A DNA stretch of 7,764 bases from a virus (taxonomy: Duplodnaviria; Heunggongvirae; Uroviricota; Caudoviricetes): IMG/VR virus record IMGVR_UViG_2724679540_000005, one strand, 5' to 3'. The notes under the pieces were generated by a model, which did no database searches, was not told the DNA's origin, and worked only from the letters and a program-made list of their open reading frames with translations. Of the stretch, positions 3,834 through 7,764 are shown piece after piece; within the stretch, counting starts at the first letter, position 1, and the number at the start of each line of letters is the position of its first letter. The position numbers and the translations under genes are program-made.

Positions 3834-4655
3834 ATGAAACTGGAAGATTTACCGAAATACTACTCCCCAAAATCCCCTGGCCTGACCGATGCATCGGCCT
3901 CAACGTCAAAAGATGCGCTGAGTATCACTGATGTGATGGCCGCGCAGGGCATGACACAGAATCGGGCTGAGATGGGTTTTTCTGCGTTCCTGGGGAAAAT
4001 GGGCATCAGTATGAATGACAGGGCGCGGGCAACAGAATTACTGGCAGATTATGCACTCAGTCGGTGCGATCGTGTGGCGGCGTTGAGAAAACTTCCGGCA
4101 GAAATAAAACCGGTAGTGATGCGCATTATGGCTTCGTACGCTTTTGAGGATTATGCCCGCAGCGCAGCGAGTAAAAAGCAGTGCCCTTGTTGCTATGGGG
4201 AAAAATTTATTGAAAGCATAGTTTTTACAAACAAGATCCAGTATCCGGATGGTAAGCCGCCGGTATGGGCAAAGTGCACGAAAGGTGTGTATCCGTCTTA
4301 CTGGGAAGAATGGAAAAAAGTCAGGGAGGTGGTAAAAGTTGCCTGTCCGGAGTGTGGCGGAAAGGGTGAGGTTTCCACCGCCTGTAAGGATTGCCGTGGG
4401 CGTGGTGTCGCCATTCATCGTGAAGAGTCGGTAAAACGTGGTATGCCTGTTATCAGAGACTGCCAGCGTTGTGGTGGTCGTGGCTATGAAAGACTACCAT
4501 CAACGGAGGCATTTAATGCTATATGCGAGGTGACAAACCAGATAACACGCGCGTCATGGGAAAAAACAGTTAAGAAATTTTATGATGCGCTGGTGACCCG
4601 GTTTGATATTGAAGAAGCATGGGCTGAGCGGCAGTTAAAAAAGGTAACTAGGTAA
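3834..4655 (+). CDS. Late-gene antiterminator Q (Q21/Q82-like), 273 aa, with four DnaJ-type CxxCxGxG zinc-finger repeats
   Basis: N-terminus MKLEDLPKYYSPKSP...TDVMAAQGM resembles prophage Q proteins as recalled. Repeats CPCCYGEK, CPECGGKG, CKDCRGRG, CQRCGGRG. The gene is followed directly by a late promoter, a terminator, tRNAs and lysis genes. Confidence 0.8.
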   Translation: MKLEDLPKYYSPKSPGLTDASASTSKDALSITDVMAAQGMTQNRAEMGFSAFLGKMGISMNDRARATELLADYALSRCDRVAALRKLPAEIKPVVMRIMASYAFEDYARSAASKKQCPCCYGEKFIESIVFTNKIQYPDGKPPVWAKCTKGVYPSYWEEWKKVREVVKVACPECGGKGEVSTACKDCRGRGVAIHREESVKRGMPVIRDCQRCGGRGYERLPSTEAFNAICEVTNQITRASWEKTVKKFYDALVTRFDIEEAWAERQLKKVTR

Positions 4656-4660
4656 CAAGG

Positions 4661-4700
4661 TTGATTTTTCCGGAATCTGTGGTAAATTCGTCATAATGAT
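4661..4700 (+). promoter_or_regulatory. PR'-like late promoter (with presumed Q-utilisation region)
   Basis: TTGATT (4661-4666), 16-nt spacer, TAAATT (4683-4688), immediately downstream of the Q stop. The position matches lambdoid PR'. Confidence 0.5.
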
Positions 4701-4737
4701 GGGCGTTTTATGCCTGACGTTAGAAGAGTTTCTACAA

Positions 4738-4761
4738 CCCGCCGCTGAGCGGGTTTTTTAT
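4738..4761 (+). terminator. tR'-like rho-independent terminator (end of the short 6S-type late leader transcript)
   Basis: CCCGC-CGCTGA-GCGGG stem-loop followed by TTTTTTATT, about 50-70 nt downstream of the putative PR'. Confidence 0.65.
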
Positions 4762-4798
4762 TGCGAAATTAATTACGGACCGTTATTATTCTGCTCCC

Positions 4799-4874
4799 GG
4801 CCCTTTAGCTCAGTGGTGAGAGCGAGCGACTCATAATCGCCAGGTCGCTGGTTCAAATCCAGCAAGGGCCACCA
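4799..4874 (+). tRNA. tRNA with CAU anticodon, ileX/ileZ-like (tRNA-Ile2, lysidine-dependent; automated tools would likely call tRNA-Met)
   Basis: 76 nt, GGCCCTT/AAGGGCC acceptor stem, anticodon loop CTCATAA, T-loop GGTTCAAATCC, 3' CCA encoded. Close to E. coli ileX as recalled. Confidence 0.9.
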
Positions 4875-4975
4875 TCACAAACCGCCATTAGCTTATCAGG
4901 AAGAGCAGACGACACGATAACAGGGTTGTTGGTGCGGGGGGCGGGTCCCCGATGGCGGTCCATTATCGGTATTCA

Positions 4976-5052
4976 GCGTTGTTAGCTCAGCCGGACAGAG
5001 CAATTGCCTTCTAAGCAATCGGTCACTGGTTCGAATCCAGTACAGCGCGCCA
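4976..5052 (+). tRNA. tRNA-Arg (anticodon UCU, argU/argN-like; reads rare AGA/AGG codons)
   Basis: 77 nt, acceptor GCGTTGT/ACAGCGC (one G-U pair), anticodon stem ATTGC/GCAAT with loop CTTCTAA, T-arm ACTGG-TTCGAAT-CCAGT, 3' GCCA. Confidence 0.9.
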
Positions 5053-5162
5053 TATTCATTCTTCCAGATTCCTTCCGGCAGAGCCTTATACTGAAATATA
5101 CCTGGCTCAGGATATTGTTGAAAATATTATATATTTGTCAAAAATAAAAGTTCTGTTAAGTA

Positions 5163-5516
5163 TTGATTGAGTATTTGTTATACGGTCTAATGGTTTTTTC
5201 AGCATTAAGTATTTATCATTCATATGGTGTGGGTAGAGTGAATATTGATGAGGCGTCGGGGTGTTTCATCCTTAGGCAGCGTATTGATATAGTCAATGCA
5301 GCACGAGCAAAGGCCTTCAGCCGTTTGACAGTTTTGTTCTGTACTCCTGATCGTCTTTCGGGAAGAGACGTTATTATTCTGAATAGTGATGCTATACAGA
5401 GGGTTTGCGATGAGTTCATGGTTGCTAATTCAGAATTATTTGCTCTTGTTCAGGAGTACAACAGAATAGCCAGGACCTGTGGTATGGATGAACTTCGGAT
5501 TACTCATCTGGGGTAG
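5163..5516 (+). CDS. Hypothetical protein, low-GC orphan ORF (117 aa from TTG at 5163; 108 aa if ATG 5190 is used)
   Basis: Open frame of 354 nt in an AT-rich segment. No convincing ribosome-binding site. No recognisable family. Could be a gene fragment. Confidence 0.35.
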   Translation: MIEYLLYGLMVFSALSIYHSYGVGRVNIDEASGCFILRQRIDIVNAARAKAFSRLTVLFCTPDRLSGRDVIILNSDAIQRVCDEFMVANSELFALVQEYNRIARTCGMDELRITHLG

Positions 5517-5839
5517 ATACATATCTGGATTATCACCTGTTACGGTAAAAAGTGATTGCTTACTGTTTTTGTGAATGGCATTGCAGCAGCCGGATAATGT
5601 CAGTGCCGGCTGACGGTGTGCTGGTGGCGGGTGTGGTGGTTGTTGCTTTCCCGTTGCTGAAAAAGAAAACGCCAGACTGTTAGCCGGGTATCAGTTAGCG
5701 GGAGAAATTTTTAAATACTTCACAATTCAGGCGGTTGACTGTTGTCTGGTTTGCGGGGAGTTTGTTAAAAGAAACTGGCATGGTGAATCCCCCTGTGCGG
5801 AGGGGCAATCAGCGAGTAGGTATATGGGATAATCGCGGA

Positions 5840-5944
5840 TTCAGGTGCTGGTACTGAATTCACCGGGAGGCACCCGGCACCATGCAATGGCACATAGCGC
5901 CACTCTCCAGCCCCTCTCCGGAGGGGCTGTTTATATTGATTTTG
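5840..5944 (+). ncRNA. Candidate small RNA: three consecutive hairpins ending in an intrinsic terminator
   Basis: Possible -10 GATAAT at 5828-5833. Hairpins ATTCAG/CTGAAT (5839-5859) and CCGGG/CCCGG (5863-5877). Terminator stem CAGCCCCTC-TCCG-GAGGGGCTG (5908-5929) followed by TTTATATTGATTTT. No ORF of 60 aa or more covers this region on either strand. Confidence 0.3.
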
Positions 5945-5963
5945 TCAGATGTGAGTAAACTCC

Positions 5964-6299
5964 TTATGGACTTTGTTGTTTTAGTCCATAAGGACATATT
6001 TGCAGAGTGCAACGGTTATTAAAGCATTCATTCAATACGTTATCTGTATTTGTAGGGCATTCCTGGCTGTTTTTGATTAAATTCCAGAATGTTTTATTGA
6101 ATGGTACTACGTTGTAAATGGTTACAGGTAGCACTTTGTTATTGAGCATGATGCCTGTGTGAGTCAGTGTAAATATACTTTCAGGAGGTAAGAAAGCATC
6201 CGATTGATACCAGATTATTAATTTTATTTTACTCCATATGACTGAAAAAGATATTCCGCATGATGGCTGGATAACTGTATCAATCACAATCCACTTCAT
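5964..6299 (-). CDS. Hypothetical protein, low-GC orphan ORF, 111 aa, Cys/Asn/Ile-rich
   Basis: ATG preceded by AAGGAAA ribosome-binding site (reverse complement of 6304-6311) with about 5-nt spacing. AT-rich promoter-like region upstream (6300-6540). No recognisable family. The last 10 codons lie inside a perfect 11-bp inverted repeat. Confidence 0.4.
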
Positions 6300-6558
6300 T
6301 TAGTTTCCTTGTTTATGCCTTGCTGGTGATGTTCTGAAAAGTATAAATGATATTTTTGAATTAAACCATAGAGCAGAATTATTTTTCTGATGTTGTTTAT
6401 TGTTTATTTAAATGCAGGGTGGTTTATATCTCGTCTTGTAGTTTATCCATGCATATCTGCTTGATAATCAGGTTTTTATTTAAGGTATGGTTTTGTGTTT
6501 TTTCTGTATTACATGTCAGGTATTTTAAAGAATTATTTTTCAGATGGTGGAAAGAACC

Positions 6559-6747
6559 ATGGCATTTAAACACTATGATGTTGTCAGGGCGGCGCCGCCG
6601 TCAGATCTTGCGGAAAAGCTGACACATAAACTGAAAGAGGGCTGGCAGCCGTTTGGTAGTCCGGTGGCCATAACCCCTTATACCCTGATGCAGGCGATTG
6701 CAGCAGAAGGTGATGTGGTGGTCAGTGGTGCAACTGAGCCGGAGTGA
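6559..6747 (+). CDS. Small phage protein resembling the DUF1737 family (62 aa from ATG 6559)
   Basis: GGTGGAAAG ribosome-binding site 5 nt before ATG 6559; the track's ATG 6544 has none. Sequence MAFKHYDVVRAAPPSDLAEKLTHKLKEGWQPFGSPVAI...LMQAI fits the recalled DUF1737 pattern. Such genes commonly sit next to lambdoid lysis genes. Confidence 0.5.
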   Translation: MAFKHYDVVRAAPPSDLAEKLTHKLKEGWQPFGSPVAITPYTLMQAIAAEGDVVVSGATEPE

Positions 6748-6989
6748 TACTACGTCATCGTACTGGCCCGGCATTCCAGGCCATAAAAGACAGTCTGGCA
6801 GTGGGACTAAATGCACTGACGCTGACGGATATTACCAAAAATGCAACGTATGGCGTTGAGATAGAAAGTCTGGTGCTGGAGATAAATGCACCGGCATCAT
6901 CATAAAAAGTGAGCCAGTCAAATGGAAGGTATCGTTAAACTCACCGGTAGTGTCAGTGGGTCGTCTGAGACGCTTGCATGAGTTATCAG

Positions 6990-7023
6990 AGCCATCAGTA
7001 GTTAACTGGTGGCTTTTTTATTG
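6990..7023 (+). terminator. Rho-independent terminator just upstream of the holin gene
   Basis: Stem AGCCATCAG / CTGGTGGCT (9 bp, one G-U pair), loop TAGTTAA, followed by TTTTTTATTGTTG. Confidence 0.55.
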
Positions 7024-7054
7024 TTGTCAGCTTCCGGATAACGGGAGACGGGGT

Positions 7055-7234
7055 ATGGACCAGATGGAAAAAATCACAACAGGTGTGTCATACACCACGT
7101 CAGCGGTGGGAACGGGCTACTGGTTCCTGCAGTTGCTGGACAGGTTTTCCCCGTCTCAGTGGGCGGCAATAGGCGTGCTGGGGAGTCTGCTGTTTGGGCT
7201 GCTGACATATCTGACTGAGGTGTACTGGCAATAG
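7055..7234 (+). pseudogene. S21-type holin/pinholin (EssD/EssQ family), truncated after about 53 codons by the IS insertion at 7215/7216
   Basis: GGGAGACGGGG ribosome-binding site then ATG 7055. [53 protein letters not shown] matches phage 21 S / EssQ as recalled, including a Met1/Met4 dual-start arrangement. The frame runs into IS sequence and stops at 7232-7234 (TEVYWQ*), so the cytoplasmic C-terminal tail is missing. Confidence 0.75.
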
Positions 7235-7764
7235 CGGACACTACCATTTGTTCTTTTTTTAAGCAGCCATCTGATGATATTTTTCCCTGAAGGCTGCCGG
7301 GGAGATATTCCCCAGACGAGAGTGACGACGCTGACGATTGTAGAAAATCTCAATGTATTCCCGTATTACTGAGATGGCTTCATCCCGGTTATTAAAACGA
7401 TAGTGGCTCAGGCTCTCATTTTTCAGCGTTCCCCAGAAGCTTTCCATCGGAGCGTTGTCGTAACAGTTACCTTTACGCGACATTGATGTTTTCAGACCAA
7501 ACTGCTCCTGTATGACCCGGTAATCGTATGCGCAGTACTGTGAACCTCGATCAGAGTGGTGGATTAGCCCGGCAGGTGGGCGCTGGCTCCTGAGCGCCAT
7601 AAACAGGGCTTTACCTGTCAGCTCTTTTGTCATGCGCTCTCCCATGGCGTAGCCGACAATTTCGCACGTATAAACATCTTTGATGCCAGCGAGGTACAAC
7701 CATCCCTCCTGTGTGGCAACATACGTCAGGTCCGCCACCCAGACCTGATTTGGTGCTGTAGGAG
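7216..7764 (-). mobile_element. IS3-family insertion sequence, second partial copy, inverted relative to the copy at 1-549
   Basis: Exact reverse complement of 1-549. The terminus TGAGGTG... begins at 7216 and interrupts the holin ORF. Confidence 0.85.
7259..7764 (-). CDS. IS3-family transposase OrfB (DDE core), 5'-truncated by the window edge
   Basis: Translation identical to the left-end copy (159-aa track ORF). Frame is open to the window edge. Confidence 0.9.
   Translation of the reverse strand, partial: PTAPNQVWVADLTYVATQEGWLYLAGIKDVYTCEIVGYAMGERMTKELTGKALFMALRSQRPPAGLIHHSDRGSQYCAYDYRVIQEQFGLKTSMSRKGNCYDNAPMESFWGTLKNESLSHYRFNNRDEAISVIREYIEIFYNRQRRHSRLGNISPAAFREKYHQMAA

Follow-up and report, generated by a model that had tools for sequence, protein, structure and literature searches.

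iraL, the small RNA STnc100 and two small late-strand genes in the Q-to-holin interval of a prophage remnant

IraL, a member of the IraM/IraL/RssC family, is an anti-adaptor of RssB, and by the accepted mechanism its binding to RssB blocks the delivery of RpoS to ClpXP. It has been characterized experimentally as a protein that stabilizes RpoS in the logarithmic phase (PMC4045071). Hryckowian et al. (2014, mBio, PMC4045071) reported for IraL of Escherichia coli CFT073, a protein identical to the one described below, binding to RssB and a longer half-life of RpoS, and deletion mutants (delta-iraL) of CFT073 and Shigella sonnei have lower log-phase RpoS levels (PMC4045071). The related IraM touches both domains of RssB, whereas IraL touches the N-terminal one only (PMC4045071); IraM is induced by Mg2+ starvation (PMC10844676). 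In Stx2 phages the small RNA STnc100 is located 75 nt downstream of stx2AB, and it was detected by RT-PCR in STEC (PMC12370729).

The window, which here means the whole analyzed stretch of 7,764 nt, contains between positions 5060 and 6540 an interval in which two convergent ORFs can be read: one of 117 aa with a TTG start on the plus strand (5163-5516, ORF1 in the following) and one of 111 aa with an ATG start on the minus strand (5964-6299). Both are present where a preliminary description of this DNA had placed them. The low GC content given there for the insert is also correct (0.394 versus 0.481 for the whole window), as are the GC-richer center (0.494 for 5517-5963, above the rest of the interval) and the gene order, with Q, a terminator-like hairpin (4736-4755) and tRNA genes upstream and a holin remnant from 7055 downstream. 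The interval is a patchwork of prophage accessory elements already catalogued, not an orphan system, and its chief known elements are iraL, the gene of a characterized stress-response regulator, and the small RNA STnc100.

The preferred explanation, to which a probability of roughly 0.9 is assigned as a whole, is that the 1.5-kb interval would combine, as a mosaic, four accessory elements that move separately and were each catalogued before (Table 1). Their site would be the 'moron' region in the late operon of a lambdoid prophage that has degraded, is of the CFT073 potB type (E. coli) and has IS copies at both ends. On the late (plus) strand, 3' of Q, PR'/tR' and the tRNA genes, a 92-aa helical-hairpin protein would be encoded first, followed by a 43-aa DUF3927 membrane protein and by STnc100 with its own terminator, while on the minus strand, from STnc100 to a gutted nanS-p esterase gene, iraL would form a cassette that is rich in AT and carries a sigma-70 promoter of its own. 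For ORF1, DUF3927 and STnc100, three of the four parts, this would be an explanation of identity and not of mechanism.

Table 1. Coordinates of the features in the window
Feature	Position	Strand	Basis or remark
Q antiterminator gene	3834-4655		Pfam Antiterm, E 6e-55
Candidate late promoter PR' (TTGATT, 16 nt, TG-n-TAAATT)	4661..4688	+	directly 3' of the Q stop codon; read from sequence
tR'-like intrinsic terminator, 7-bp GC-rich stem (hairpin 4736-4755), then T-run	4736..4763	+	terminator scan
tRNA, CAT anticodon	4799..4874	+	Met by ARAGORN; identical CFT073 gene is tRNA-Ile in PGAP
Degenerate tRNA-Arg(TCG) gene copy, intact in CFT073	4882..4958	+	coordinates transferred from the CFT073 gene
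tRNA-Arg (TCT)	4976..5052	+	
ORF1, conserved core, 92 aa, GTG start	5238..5516	+	PHROG 2873, family without assigned function
DUF3927 small membrane-protein gene, 43 aa, 'TciB-like' PHROG 1470	5552..5683	+	Pfam PF13064
STnc100 sRNA gene, full length	5749..5938	+	Rfam RF02076
iraL, RssB anti-adaptor of the IraM family, 111 aa	5964..6299	-	NCBIfam NF007393; CFT073 identity
iraL 5' UTR, promoter and upstream regulatory region	6300..6432	-	TSS 6332; -10 TATACT 6340-6345; 6432 is -100 from the TSS
nanS-p-type (DUF1737 + SASA) esterase gene remnant, catalytic middle deleted	6544..6905	+	Pfam DUF1737; phrog_143
Class II holin gene, 3' end truncated by the right-hand IS copy	7055..7215	+	collinear with the CFT073 holin (L006 14558-14773)

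From 4757 to 7224 the window is collinear with the potB prophage of CFT073 at 98.1% identity. The tRNA(CAT) genes of the two show no difference; the inter-tRNA interval 4875-4975 shows 21 differences in 101 nt, and a tRNA-Arg(TCG) is called there by ARAGORN in CFT073 and not in the window. The candidate late promoter may represent PR', as its sequence and position suggest; it scores 8 of 12, under the threshold of 9 of the promoter scan, and is consequently absent from the scan output. Of the nanS-p-type gene two pieces are left, which correspond to the two ends of phrog_143: 6544-6747 matches aa 1-55 of the esterase with 91% identity and 6744-6905 matches aa 602-649 with 38% identity (E 4e-10). 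The inverted repeat of the right-hand IS begins at 7216, and with its holin gene interrupted the prophage is defective, a remnant of about 6.7 kb flanked by two IS3-family copies in inverted orientation.

The minus-strand ORF is identical to CFT073 iraL in 111 of 111 amino acids and 336 of 336 nucleotides. With NCBIfam NF007393 (IraM) it reaches 162 bits, above the cut-off of 121, residues 1-110 aligning to profile positions 1-113, and it matches IraM in PDB 8twd with E 9e-32 and 51 of 78 identical residues over the crystallized N-terminal part. The C-terminal tail of the window protein is cysteine-rich, as is that of IraM. The earlier statement that neither ORF could be assigned to a family is wrong for this one and half true for ORF1, whose family, PHROG 2873, has no assigned function. 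Nucleotide identities are bimodal, with iraL-type copies at 95% or above and K-12 iraM-type copies at about 71%, in agreement with the non-overlapping iraL and iraM classes of PMC4045071, and these values place the ORF in the iraL class and not in the iraM class.

The published 5' RACE sequence of iraL, ACATCACCAGCAAGGCATAAACAAGGAAACCA (PMC4045071), matches the minus strand of the window at 31 of 32 positions, and a TATACT motif is found 7 nt 5' of the start site at 6332 (-). Between 6300 and 6380 three differences from CFT073 occur, namely SNPs at 6302 and 6333 and, within the presumed spacer, a 1-nt indel (6361); no convincing -35 element of iraL was identified. The RACE-mapped sigma-70 start site is conserved in the window. 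Since iraL has its own sigma-70 promoter with a mapped start site and runs against the direction of late transcription, it is not Q-dependent cargo, as had been proposed for the whole insert. Given that the protein is 100% identical and the start site conserved, IraL would raise log-phase RpoS also in the host of the window, from a repressed or defective prophage; in this loose sense, as an RpoS stabilizer, the proposed 'fitness factor' is an apt term for iraL. The genes iraL and STnc100 are convergent and 25 nt apart, with no U-tract terminator on the minus strand; for this reason read-through from iraL and the late transcription driven by Q could be mutually antagonistic and link RpoS stabilization to the state of the prophage, a weaker possibility than the new ORF1 family discussed below.

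The spacer between the two ORFs had been taken as non-coding, yet it contains a DUF3927 coding sequence and a full-length STnc100 gene. The DUF3927 protein matches PF13064 with 90.7 bits (gathering threshold 25, E 5.6e-26, profile positions 7-53 of 53) and phrog_1470 with E 2.6e-11, and its CDS is annotated by PGAP in CFT073 and MS6198; a literature search on DUF3927 or tciB delivered nothing relevant. STnc100 matches RF02076 with 132.4 bits (gathering score 47, E 8.5e-30, model positions 1-206), is without differences from the CFT073 copy, and according to the terminator scan its 3' end is an intrinsic terminator with a 9-bp stem of which 7 pairs are G-C (5908-5929), followed by TTTATATT. A sigma-70 scan for promoters of ORF1 or STnc100 gave 7 sites versus 5.2 +/- 2.1 in shuffled sequence, none of them convincing, and no convincing promoter was found 5' of 5749.

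The backbone of the window has the order known from Stx phages: Q, terminator, tRNAs, slot, STnc100, nanS-p and holin. In the stx-negative Traversvirus phi296 the slot is empty, with tRNA-Met, two tRNA-Arg genes, about 60 nt, an STnc100-like sequence, NanS and the holin in sequence. Because of this empty slot, and of the distance of 75 nt from stx2AB to STnc100 in Stx2 phages, ORF1 and DUF3927 (window 5053-5700) are placed by sequence comparison in the exact stx position on the late strand. The earlier placement of the cargo in the stx position therefore applies to these two genes and not to iraL, which lies outside the slot, between STnc100 and the gutted nanS-p gene, and on the other strand; ORF1 and DUF3927 can fairly be called a horizontally acquired moron. 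Strand and position suggest that RNA polymerase modified by Q would transcribe both upon induction.

ORF1 matches PHROG 2873 with E 2.2e-69, residues 10-117 covering the whole profile of 108 positions (1-108). In the lineage of the window the frame is open 5' to ATG 5190 and TTG 5163. An N-terminal extension over 5163-5237 was rejected as coding; it contains stops in one of two homologous loci (L005) and has no homology in the other (L004). Three-way homology rises sharply just 5' of GTG 5238 and ends at the stop codon, and GTG 5238 is the best-supported start, in place of the TTG 5163 assumed before.

It is very unlikely that ORF1 (5163-5516), instead of being a gene, is open by chance within an AT-rich intergenic stretch. 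Such a frame would agree with the non-ATG start, with the absence of a strong Shine-Dalgarno sequence before TTG 5163 or GTG 5238, with the single tblastn match in 50,697 phage records (mEp460_ev081), and with the missing PGAP annotation in every close copy among those listed for the 1183 E. coli genomes with the ORF1 part. It does not agree with the homologues of 67-72% nucleotide identity, in which the 279-nt frame is free of indels and starts and stops at the same positions, nor with the sharp limits of homology at the GTG and the stop codon. Against the homologues in L004 and L005, dN/dS is 0.26 at a dS of about 1, third positions have changed about twice as often as first and second positions, and the alternative frames of the window copy contain 2-13 stops each. 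The homologue in ETEC1738 (WP_001017777.1) is annotated by PGAP as a hypothetical protein, and distant members with 33-41% identity are intact ORFs of 91-95 aa. This pattern of conservation indicates that ORF1 is a real gene.

Searches with Pfam and NCBIfam gave no match for ORF1, and nine members of its family delivered only scattered single Pfam matches with E > 0.01. The family HMM found 22 matches among 1.84 billion representative proteins, all of them small ORFs of the same family, with no tie to any named family, and viral contigs searched with single distant members gave no match. AlphaFold2 predicts an antiparallel helical hairpin (mean pLDDT 85), a fold that would by itself indicate no function. 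A distant relationship to the nucleoid-associated DNA-binding proteins GapR/UPF0335 is highly improbable: among PDB chains the family profile matches four of GapR (residues 1-47, E 0.023 at best), and the length of about 90 aa and the helical character are similar, but the hhalign probability is 26% with an approximate C-terminal third of the GapR query sequence, none of the nine family members has a match to the Pfam GapR family, and GapR is absent from the top structural matches of the fold searches. Membership was rejected, as the PDB profile match was upheld by neither hhalign nor the fold searches.

Tentatively, ORF1 (5238-5516) is proposed to represent an uncharacterized family of helical hairpins of about 92 aa with a new role in lysogen benefit or in the late phase, possibly inhibiting a host or phage factor by protein binding. 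Members of the family are under purifying selection and occur in the Q-to-holin interval of lambdoid prophages of Escherichia and Citrobacter, often beside DUF3927. The family is rare in sequenced free phages, yet present in roughly a quarter of the complete E. coli genomes.

It is rather unlikely that ORF1 and DUF3927 together form a late-operon module, co-selected in the Q-holin interval for instance for lysis timing, superinfection exclusion or envelope modification. The two are neighbors on one strand in the window, in CFT073 and in mEp460, and a Citrobacter-type prophage carries between Q and the holin an ORF1 homologue of 39% identity, followed by a TerB-like gene, the DUF3927 gene and the holin. 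However, no DUF3927 gene lies 3' of the ETEC1738 homologue, DUF3927 occurs without ORF1 in phages JLK-2012 and vB_EcoS-640R1, and as both genes are common in the same hotspot their co-occurrence could be merely positional.

The reading of both convergent ORFs and the spacer as one undescribed, Q-dependent cargo system, such as a toxin or an anti-phage defense, draws on the stx slot, the low GC content and the lack of an assigned function for ORF1. It is extremely improbable, since the minus-strand ORF is iraL, characterized in 2014 (PMC4045071) and transcribed from its own promoter against the late direction, the spacer carries an sRNA curated in Rfam and a gene with a Pfam DUF, and the parts occur independently. 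Toxin and defense functions found no support, PADLOC-DB 2.0 giving no family at E <= 0.1 for ORF1, IraL and DUF3927. Of 5426 complete E. coli genomes, 863 contain the whole interval at a coverage of at least 80%, while the ORF1 part was found in 1183 genomes and the iraL part in 1433. Phage mEp460 has ORF1, DUF3927 and STnc100 and lacks iraL, whereas vB_EcoS-640R1 has iraL and lacks ORF1. ORF1 and iraL thus form no unit, each being found without the other in many genomes and phages.

The locus is an ordinary and already known one, iraL and STnc100 having been described before. A heavily degraded, IS-bounded prophage stump nevertheless retains intact iraL with its promoter, in line with the enrichment that has been reported for this gene in Shigella and UPEC and with the view that regulatory cargo is what prophage remnants are kept for. 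The cargo of the stx slot (ORF1 and DUF3927) can now be told apart from the backbone (STnc100 and nanS-p), and ORF1 emerges as a real, selected small gene whose PGAP annotation is missing in the copies listed, with more than 1000 E. coli genomes carrying it.

Among the known systems, the IraL system of CFT073 is shared in protein, coding DNA, mRNA 5' end and -10 element, and in a context of Q, tRNAs, DUF3927, iraL, DUF1737 remnant and holin. It differs by the two SNPs and the 1-nt indel within 81 nt 5' of the start codon, by IS200C between Q and the tRNAs and by the intact tRNA-Arg(TCG) in CFT073; the prophage of the window, unlike that of CFT073, has shrunk to about 6.7 kb between the inverted IS3-family copies. 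IraM of K-12 (PDB 8twd, in complex with RssB) belongs to the same family and to the other class, with about 71% nucleotide identity, and is unlike window IraL in genomic context and regulation. ORF1 resembles PHROG 2873 and WP_001017777.1 over the whole profile, a comparison that gives family membership and not function. With the STnc100/PasD sRNAs of lambdoid and Stx prophages the window has in common the full-length 132-bit match, the terminal intrinsic terminator and the position between the tRNA/stx slot and nanS-p, but it holds a single copy where related prophages hold two to five in tandem. The stxAB moron of Stx-converting phages shares backbone, insertion point and late strand with ORF1 and DUF3927, whereas the cargo of the window is unrelated to Shiga toxin, its nanS-p gene is reduced to the two ends, and iraL is present as an additional opposite-strand cassette between STnc100 and nanS-p.

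The preliminary description had reported two convergent ORFs in the interval 5060-6540, between the tRNAs and the holin, and both are present: 5163-5516 on the plus strand (117 aa, TTG start) and 5964-6299 on the minus strand (111 aa, ATG start). The GC content is low as described (0.394, versus 0.481 for the whole window), with a GC-richer centre (0.494 for 5517-5963), and the flanking order of Q, terminator-like hairpin, tRNAs and holin remnant is also present. The observation is partly confirmed: the position is correct, the orphan status and the Q-dependence are not.

Features of the interval and its surroundings
Feature	Coordinates	Strand	Remarks
Q antiterminator	3834-4655		Pfam Antiterm, E 6e-55
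Terminator-like hairpin	4736-4755		terminator scan
tRNA(CAT)	4799-4874		intact
Decayed tRNA-Arg(TCG) copy	4882-4958		intact counterpart in CFT073 and Stx-type phages
tRNA-Arg(TCT)	4976-5052		intact
ORF1	5238-5516	+	92 aa, GTG start
DUF3927 gene	5552-5683	+	43 aa
STnc100	5749-5938	+	Rfam
iraL	5964-6299	-	111 aa
nanS-p remnant	6544-6747 and 6744-6905		esterase ends
Holin remnant	downstream of interval		class II; truncated by right-hand IS copy

The minus-strand ORF matches NCBIfam NF007393 'anti-adapter protein IraM' with 162 bits (cut-off 121) and the crystallised K-12 IraM (PDB 8twd) with E 9e-32 (51 of 78 residues identical). Its protein is identical in 111 of 111 residues to that of a gene in the prophage adjoining potB in E. 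coli CFT073 (L006:13466-13801), with zero nucleotide differences in the coding sequence. The CFT073 gene was named iraL by Hryckowian et al. 2014 (PMC4045071), who reported that IraL raises the level and half-life of RpoS in log phase in CFT073 and the RpoS level in Shigella sonnei, and that iraL is enriched among UPEC and Shigella isolates. The ORF belongs to a known family and is identical to its type example. In 5426 complete E. coli genomes the iraL/iraM nucleotide identities are bimodal, with 1419 records at 95% or above (iraL type) and 3329 at 60-80% (iraM type); the absence of overlap between the two classes was also found in PMC4045071.

[quoted passage not shown] CFT073 differs at three sites in the 81 nt preceding the start codon (6300-6380): SNPs at positions 6302 and 6333, and an indel of 1 nt at 6361. 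SNP 6333 is position -1, and 6361 is a 1-nt deletion in what is presumed to be the -10/-35 spacer; among E. coli genomes both length alleles are probably common, judging from matches of 1491 and 1492 nt. Since iraL is oriented against late transcription, with a promoter of its own, it is not the Q-dependent cargo that had been proposed.

The centre of the interval, previously taken for a hairpin-dense non-coding island, contains two genes. The DUF3927 protein (Pfam E 5.6e-26; PHROG 1470 'TciB-like') is annotated by PGAP in CFT073 and MS6198. STnc100, a known prophage sRNA, is a full-length Rfam match (132.4 bits, gathering score 47, model positions 1-206), closed by a strong intrinsic terminator (5908-5929). 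The hairpins correspond to the STnc100 structure, but the fold alone barely exceeds shuffled sequence in stability (z = -1.9), so the evidence that counts for STnc100 is the covariance-model match. In Stx2 phages STnc100 is reported to sit 75 nt downstream of stx2AB (PMC12370729), and the PasD sRNAs of EPEC are its relatives (bioRxiv 10.64898/2026.05.13.724894). The window has one copy, a related prophage (L003, 4165-4822) two, and E. coli 2014C-3338 (L005, 3667-6618) five full-length copies of 120-172 bits, four of them near-tandem between the ORF1 homologue and nanS-p. The iraL stop codon faces the STnc100 terminator across 25 nt (5939-5963). On the minus strand no U-tract follows the terminator hairpin, and transcription of iraL may therefore continue antisense into STnc100.

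PGAP has no annotation for ORF1, the plus-strand ORF, in any of the listed close copies (27, taken at even intervals from the 1183 complete E. coli genomes carrying it), so a chance frame had to be considered. E. coli ETEC1738 (L004:5026-5304, annotated as WP_001017777.1) and 2014C-3338 (L005:5071-5349) have divergent homologues that speak against this: they share 67-72% nucleotide identity with ORF1 across exactly 279 nt, with zero indels and a common GTG start and stop position. Pairwise dN/dS is 0.26-0.27 at dS 0.9-1.1, third-position changes are about twice those at positions 1 and 2, and the remaining five frames across ORF1 in the window contain 2-13 stops. ORF1 is thus a genuine gene under purifying selection, and its missing annotation looks like a systematic gap for a small GTG-start gene. 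It is shorter than first proposed: the homology shared by all three extends from shortly before the GTG at 5238 to the stop codon, and in the stretch up to 5163 L005 has stops and L004 is non-homologous, which sets the gene at 5238-5516 (92 aa).

ORF1 belongs to PHROG 2873 (E 2e-69), a catalogued phage orthologous group of unknown function; no Pfam, NCBIfam or PADLOC family was matched. A weak profile match to GapR/UPF0335 (E 0.023) was not borne out by hhalign (probability 26%). The modelled fold is a hairpin. Among 1.84 billion representative proteins a profile search returned only 22 relatives. One of these, 39% identical, lies between the Q gene and the holin of a prophage that Citrobacter braakii also carries; next to it, in this order, come a TerB-like gene and a DUF3927 gene. 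The position of ORF1 in the Q-holin interval is conserved across genera. The exact ORF1 protein occurs on 713 contigs, the longest of 4.9 kb, consistent with repeat-bounded draft assemblies, probably of Shigella source.

Over 4757-7224 the window and the CFT073 potB prophage are collinear (98.1% identity). Many E. coli genomes contain the 1491-nt interval at 99.5% identity and 100% coverage, and 863 of 5426 contain it at a coverage of at least 80%; the ORF1 part is found in 1183 and the iraL part in 1433. The two ORFs and their spacer do not travel as a unit: phage mEp460_ev081 carries ORF1, DUF3927 and STnc100, then a TolA-like gene in place of iraL, and vB_EcoS-640R1 carries iraL and two STnc100 copies without ORF1. 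The stx-negative Traversvirus phi296 presents the empty backbone of three tRNAs, about 60 nt, an STnc100-like sequence, NanS and holin. It follows that ORF1 and DUF3927 (~5053-5700) occupy the stx slot, and that iraL with its AT-rich upstream region (~5939-6557, GC 0.28-0.35) is a separate opposite-strand cassette between STnc100 and nanS-p.

Two exact 549-bp copies of an IS3-family element in inverted orientation (1-549 and 7216-7764) bracket the prophage fragment and carry the 3' part of the transposase gene (NF033516, 201.6 bits). Truncation of the holin leaves the prophage unable to lyse. The nanS-p remnant, a DUF1737 ORF and the following small ORF, comprises the N- and C-terminal ends (esterase residues 1-55, 91% identity, and 602-649) of a NanS-p-type sialate O-acetylesterase gene with about 545 catalytic-middle codons deleted; CFT073 and MS6198 have this remnant too. 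Around the decayed tRNA (4875-4975) 21 differences in 101 nt, indels included, are found, and ARAGORN calls no tRNA. The Q protein (273 aa) contains a DnaJ-type CXXCXGXG zinc-finger segment (residues 171-218; PF00684, 28.4 bits, slightly short of the 32.7 gathering score), which lies on the N-terminal side of the Antiterm domain and overlaps it. An intact toxin-antitoxin pair, with RelB/DinJ as antitoxin and RelE/StbE as toxin (NF008412, 133 bits; TIGR02385, 54.7 bits), is situated close to the inner edge of the left IS and adjoins a Hok-family type I toxin gene, hokD in CFT073 according to PGAP (833-1359 and 1431-1586).

In CFT073 a sigma-70 promoter of its own drives production of the identical IraL in growing cells, and the protein binds the receiver domain of RssB (PMC4045071). 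As an anti-adaptor it would prevent RssB from delivering RpoS to ClpXP, with accumulation of RpoS in log phase as the result; the same action is presumed in the host of the window, and this benefit may have kept iraL in an otherwise decayed prophage. PR'/tR' is followed on the late strand by ORF1, DUF3927 and STnc100, and Q-modified polymerase would read through all three, pass the STnc100 terminator as well and run antisense across iraL. For promoters of their own, a scan yielded no excess of sites over shuffled sequence.

The interval holds no new kind of system: iraL is known, and STnc100, DUF3927 and PHROG 2873 are all catalogued, the first two as members of curated families without assigned function. 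Added here is ORF1 as a selected gene with a predicted hairpin fold and a position conserved across genera.
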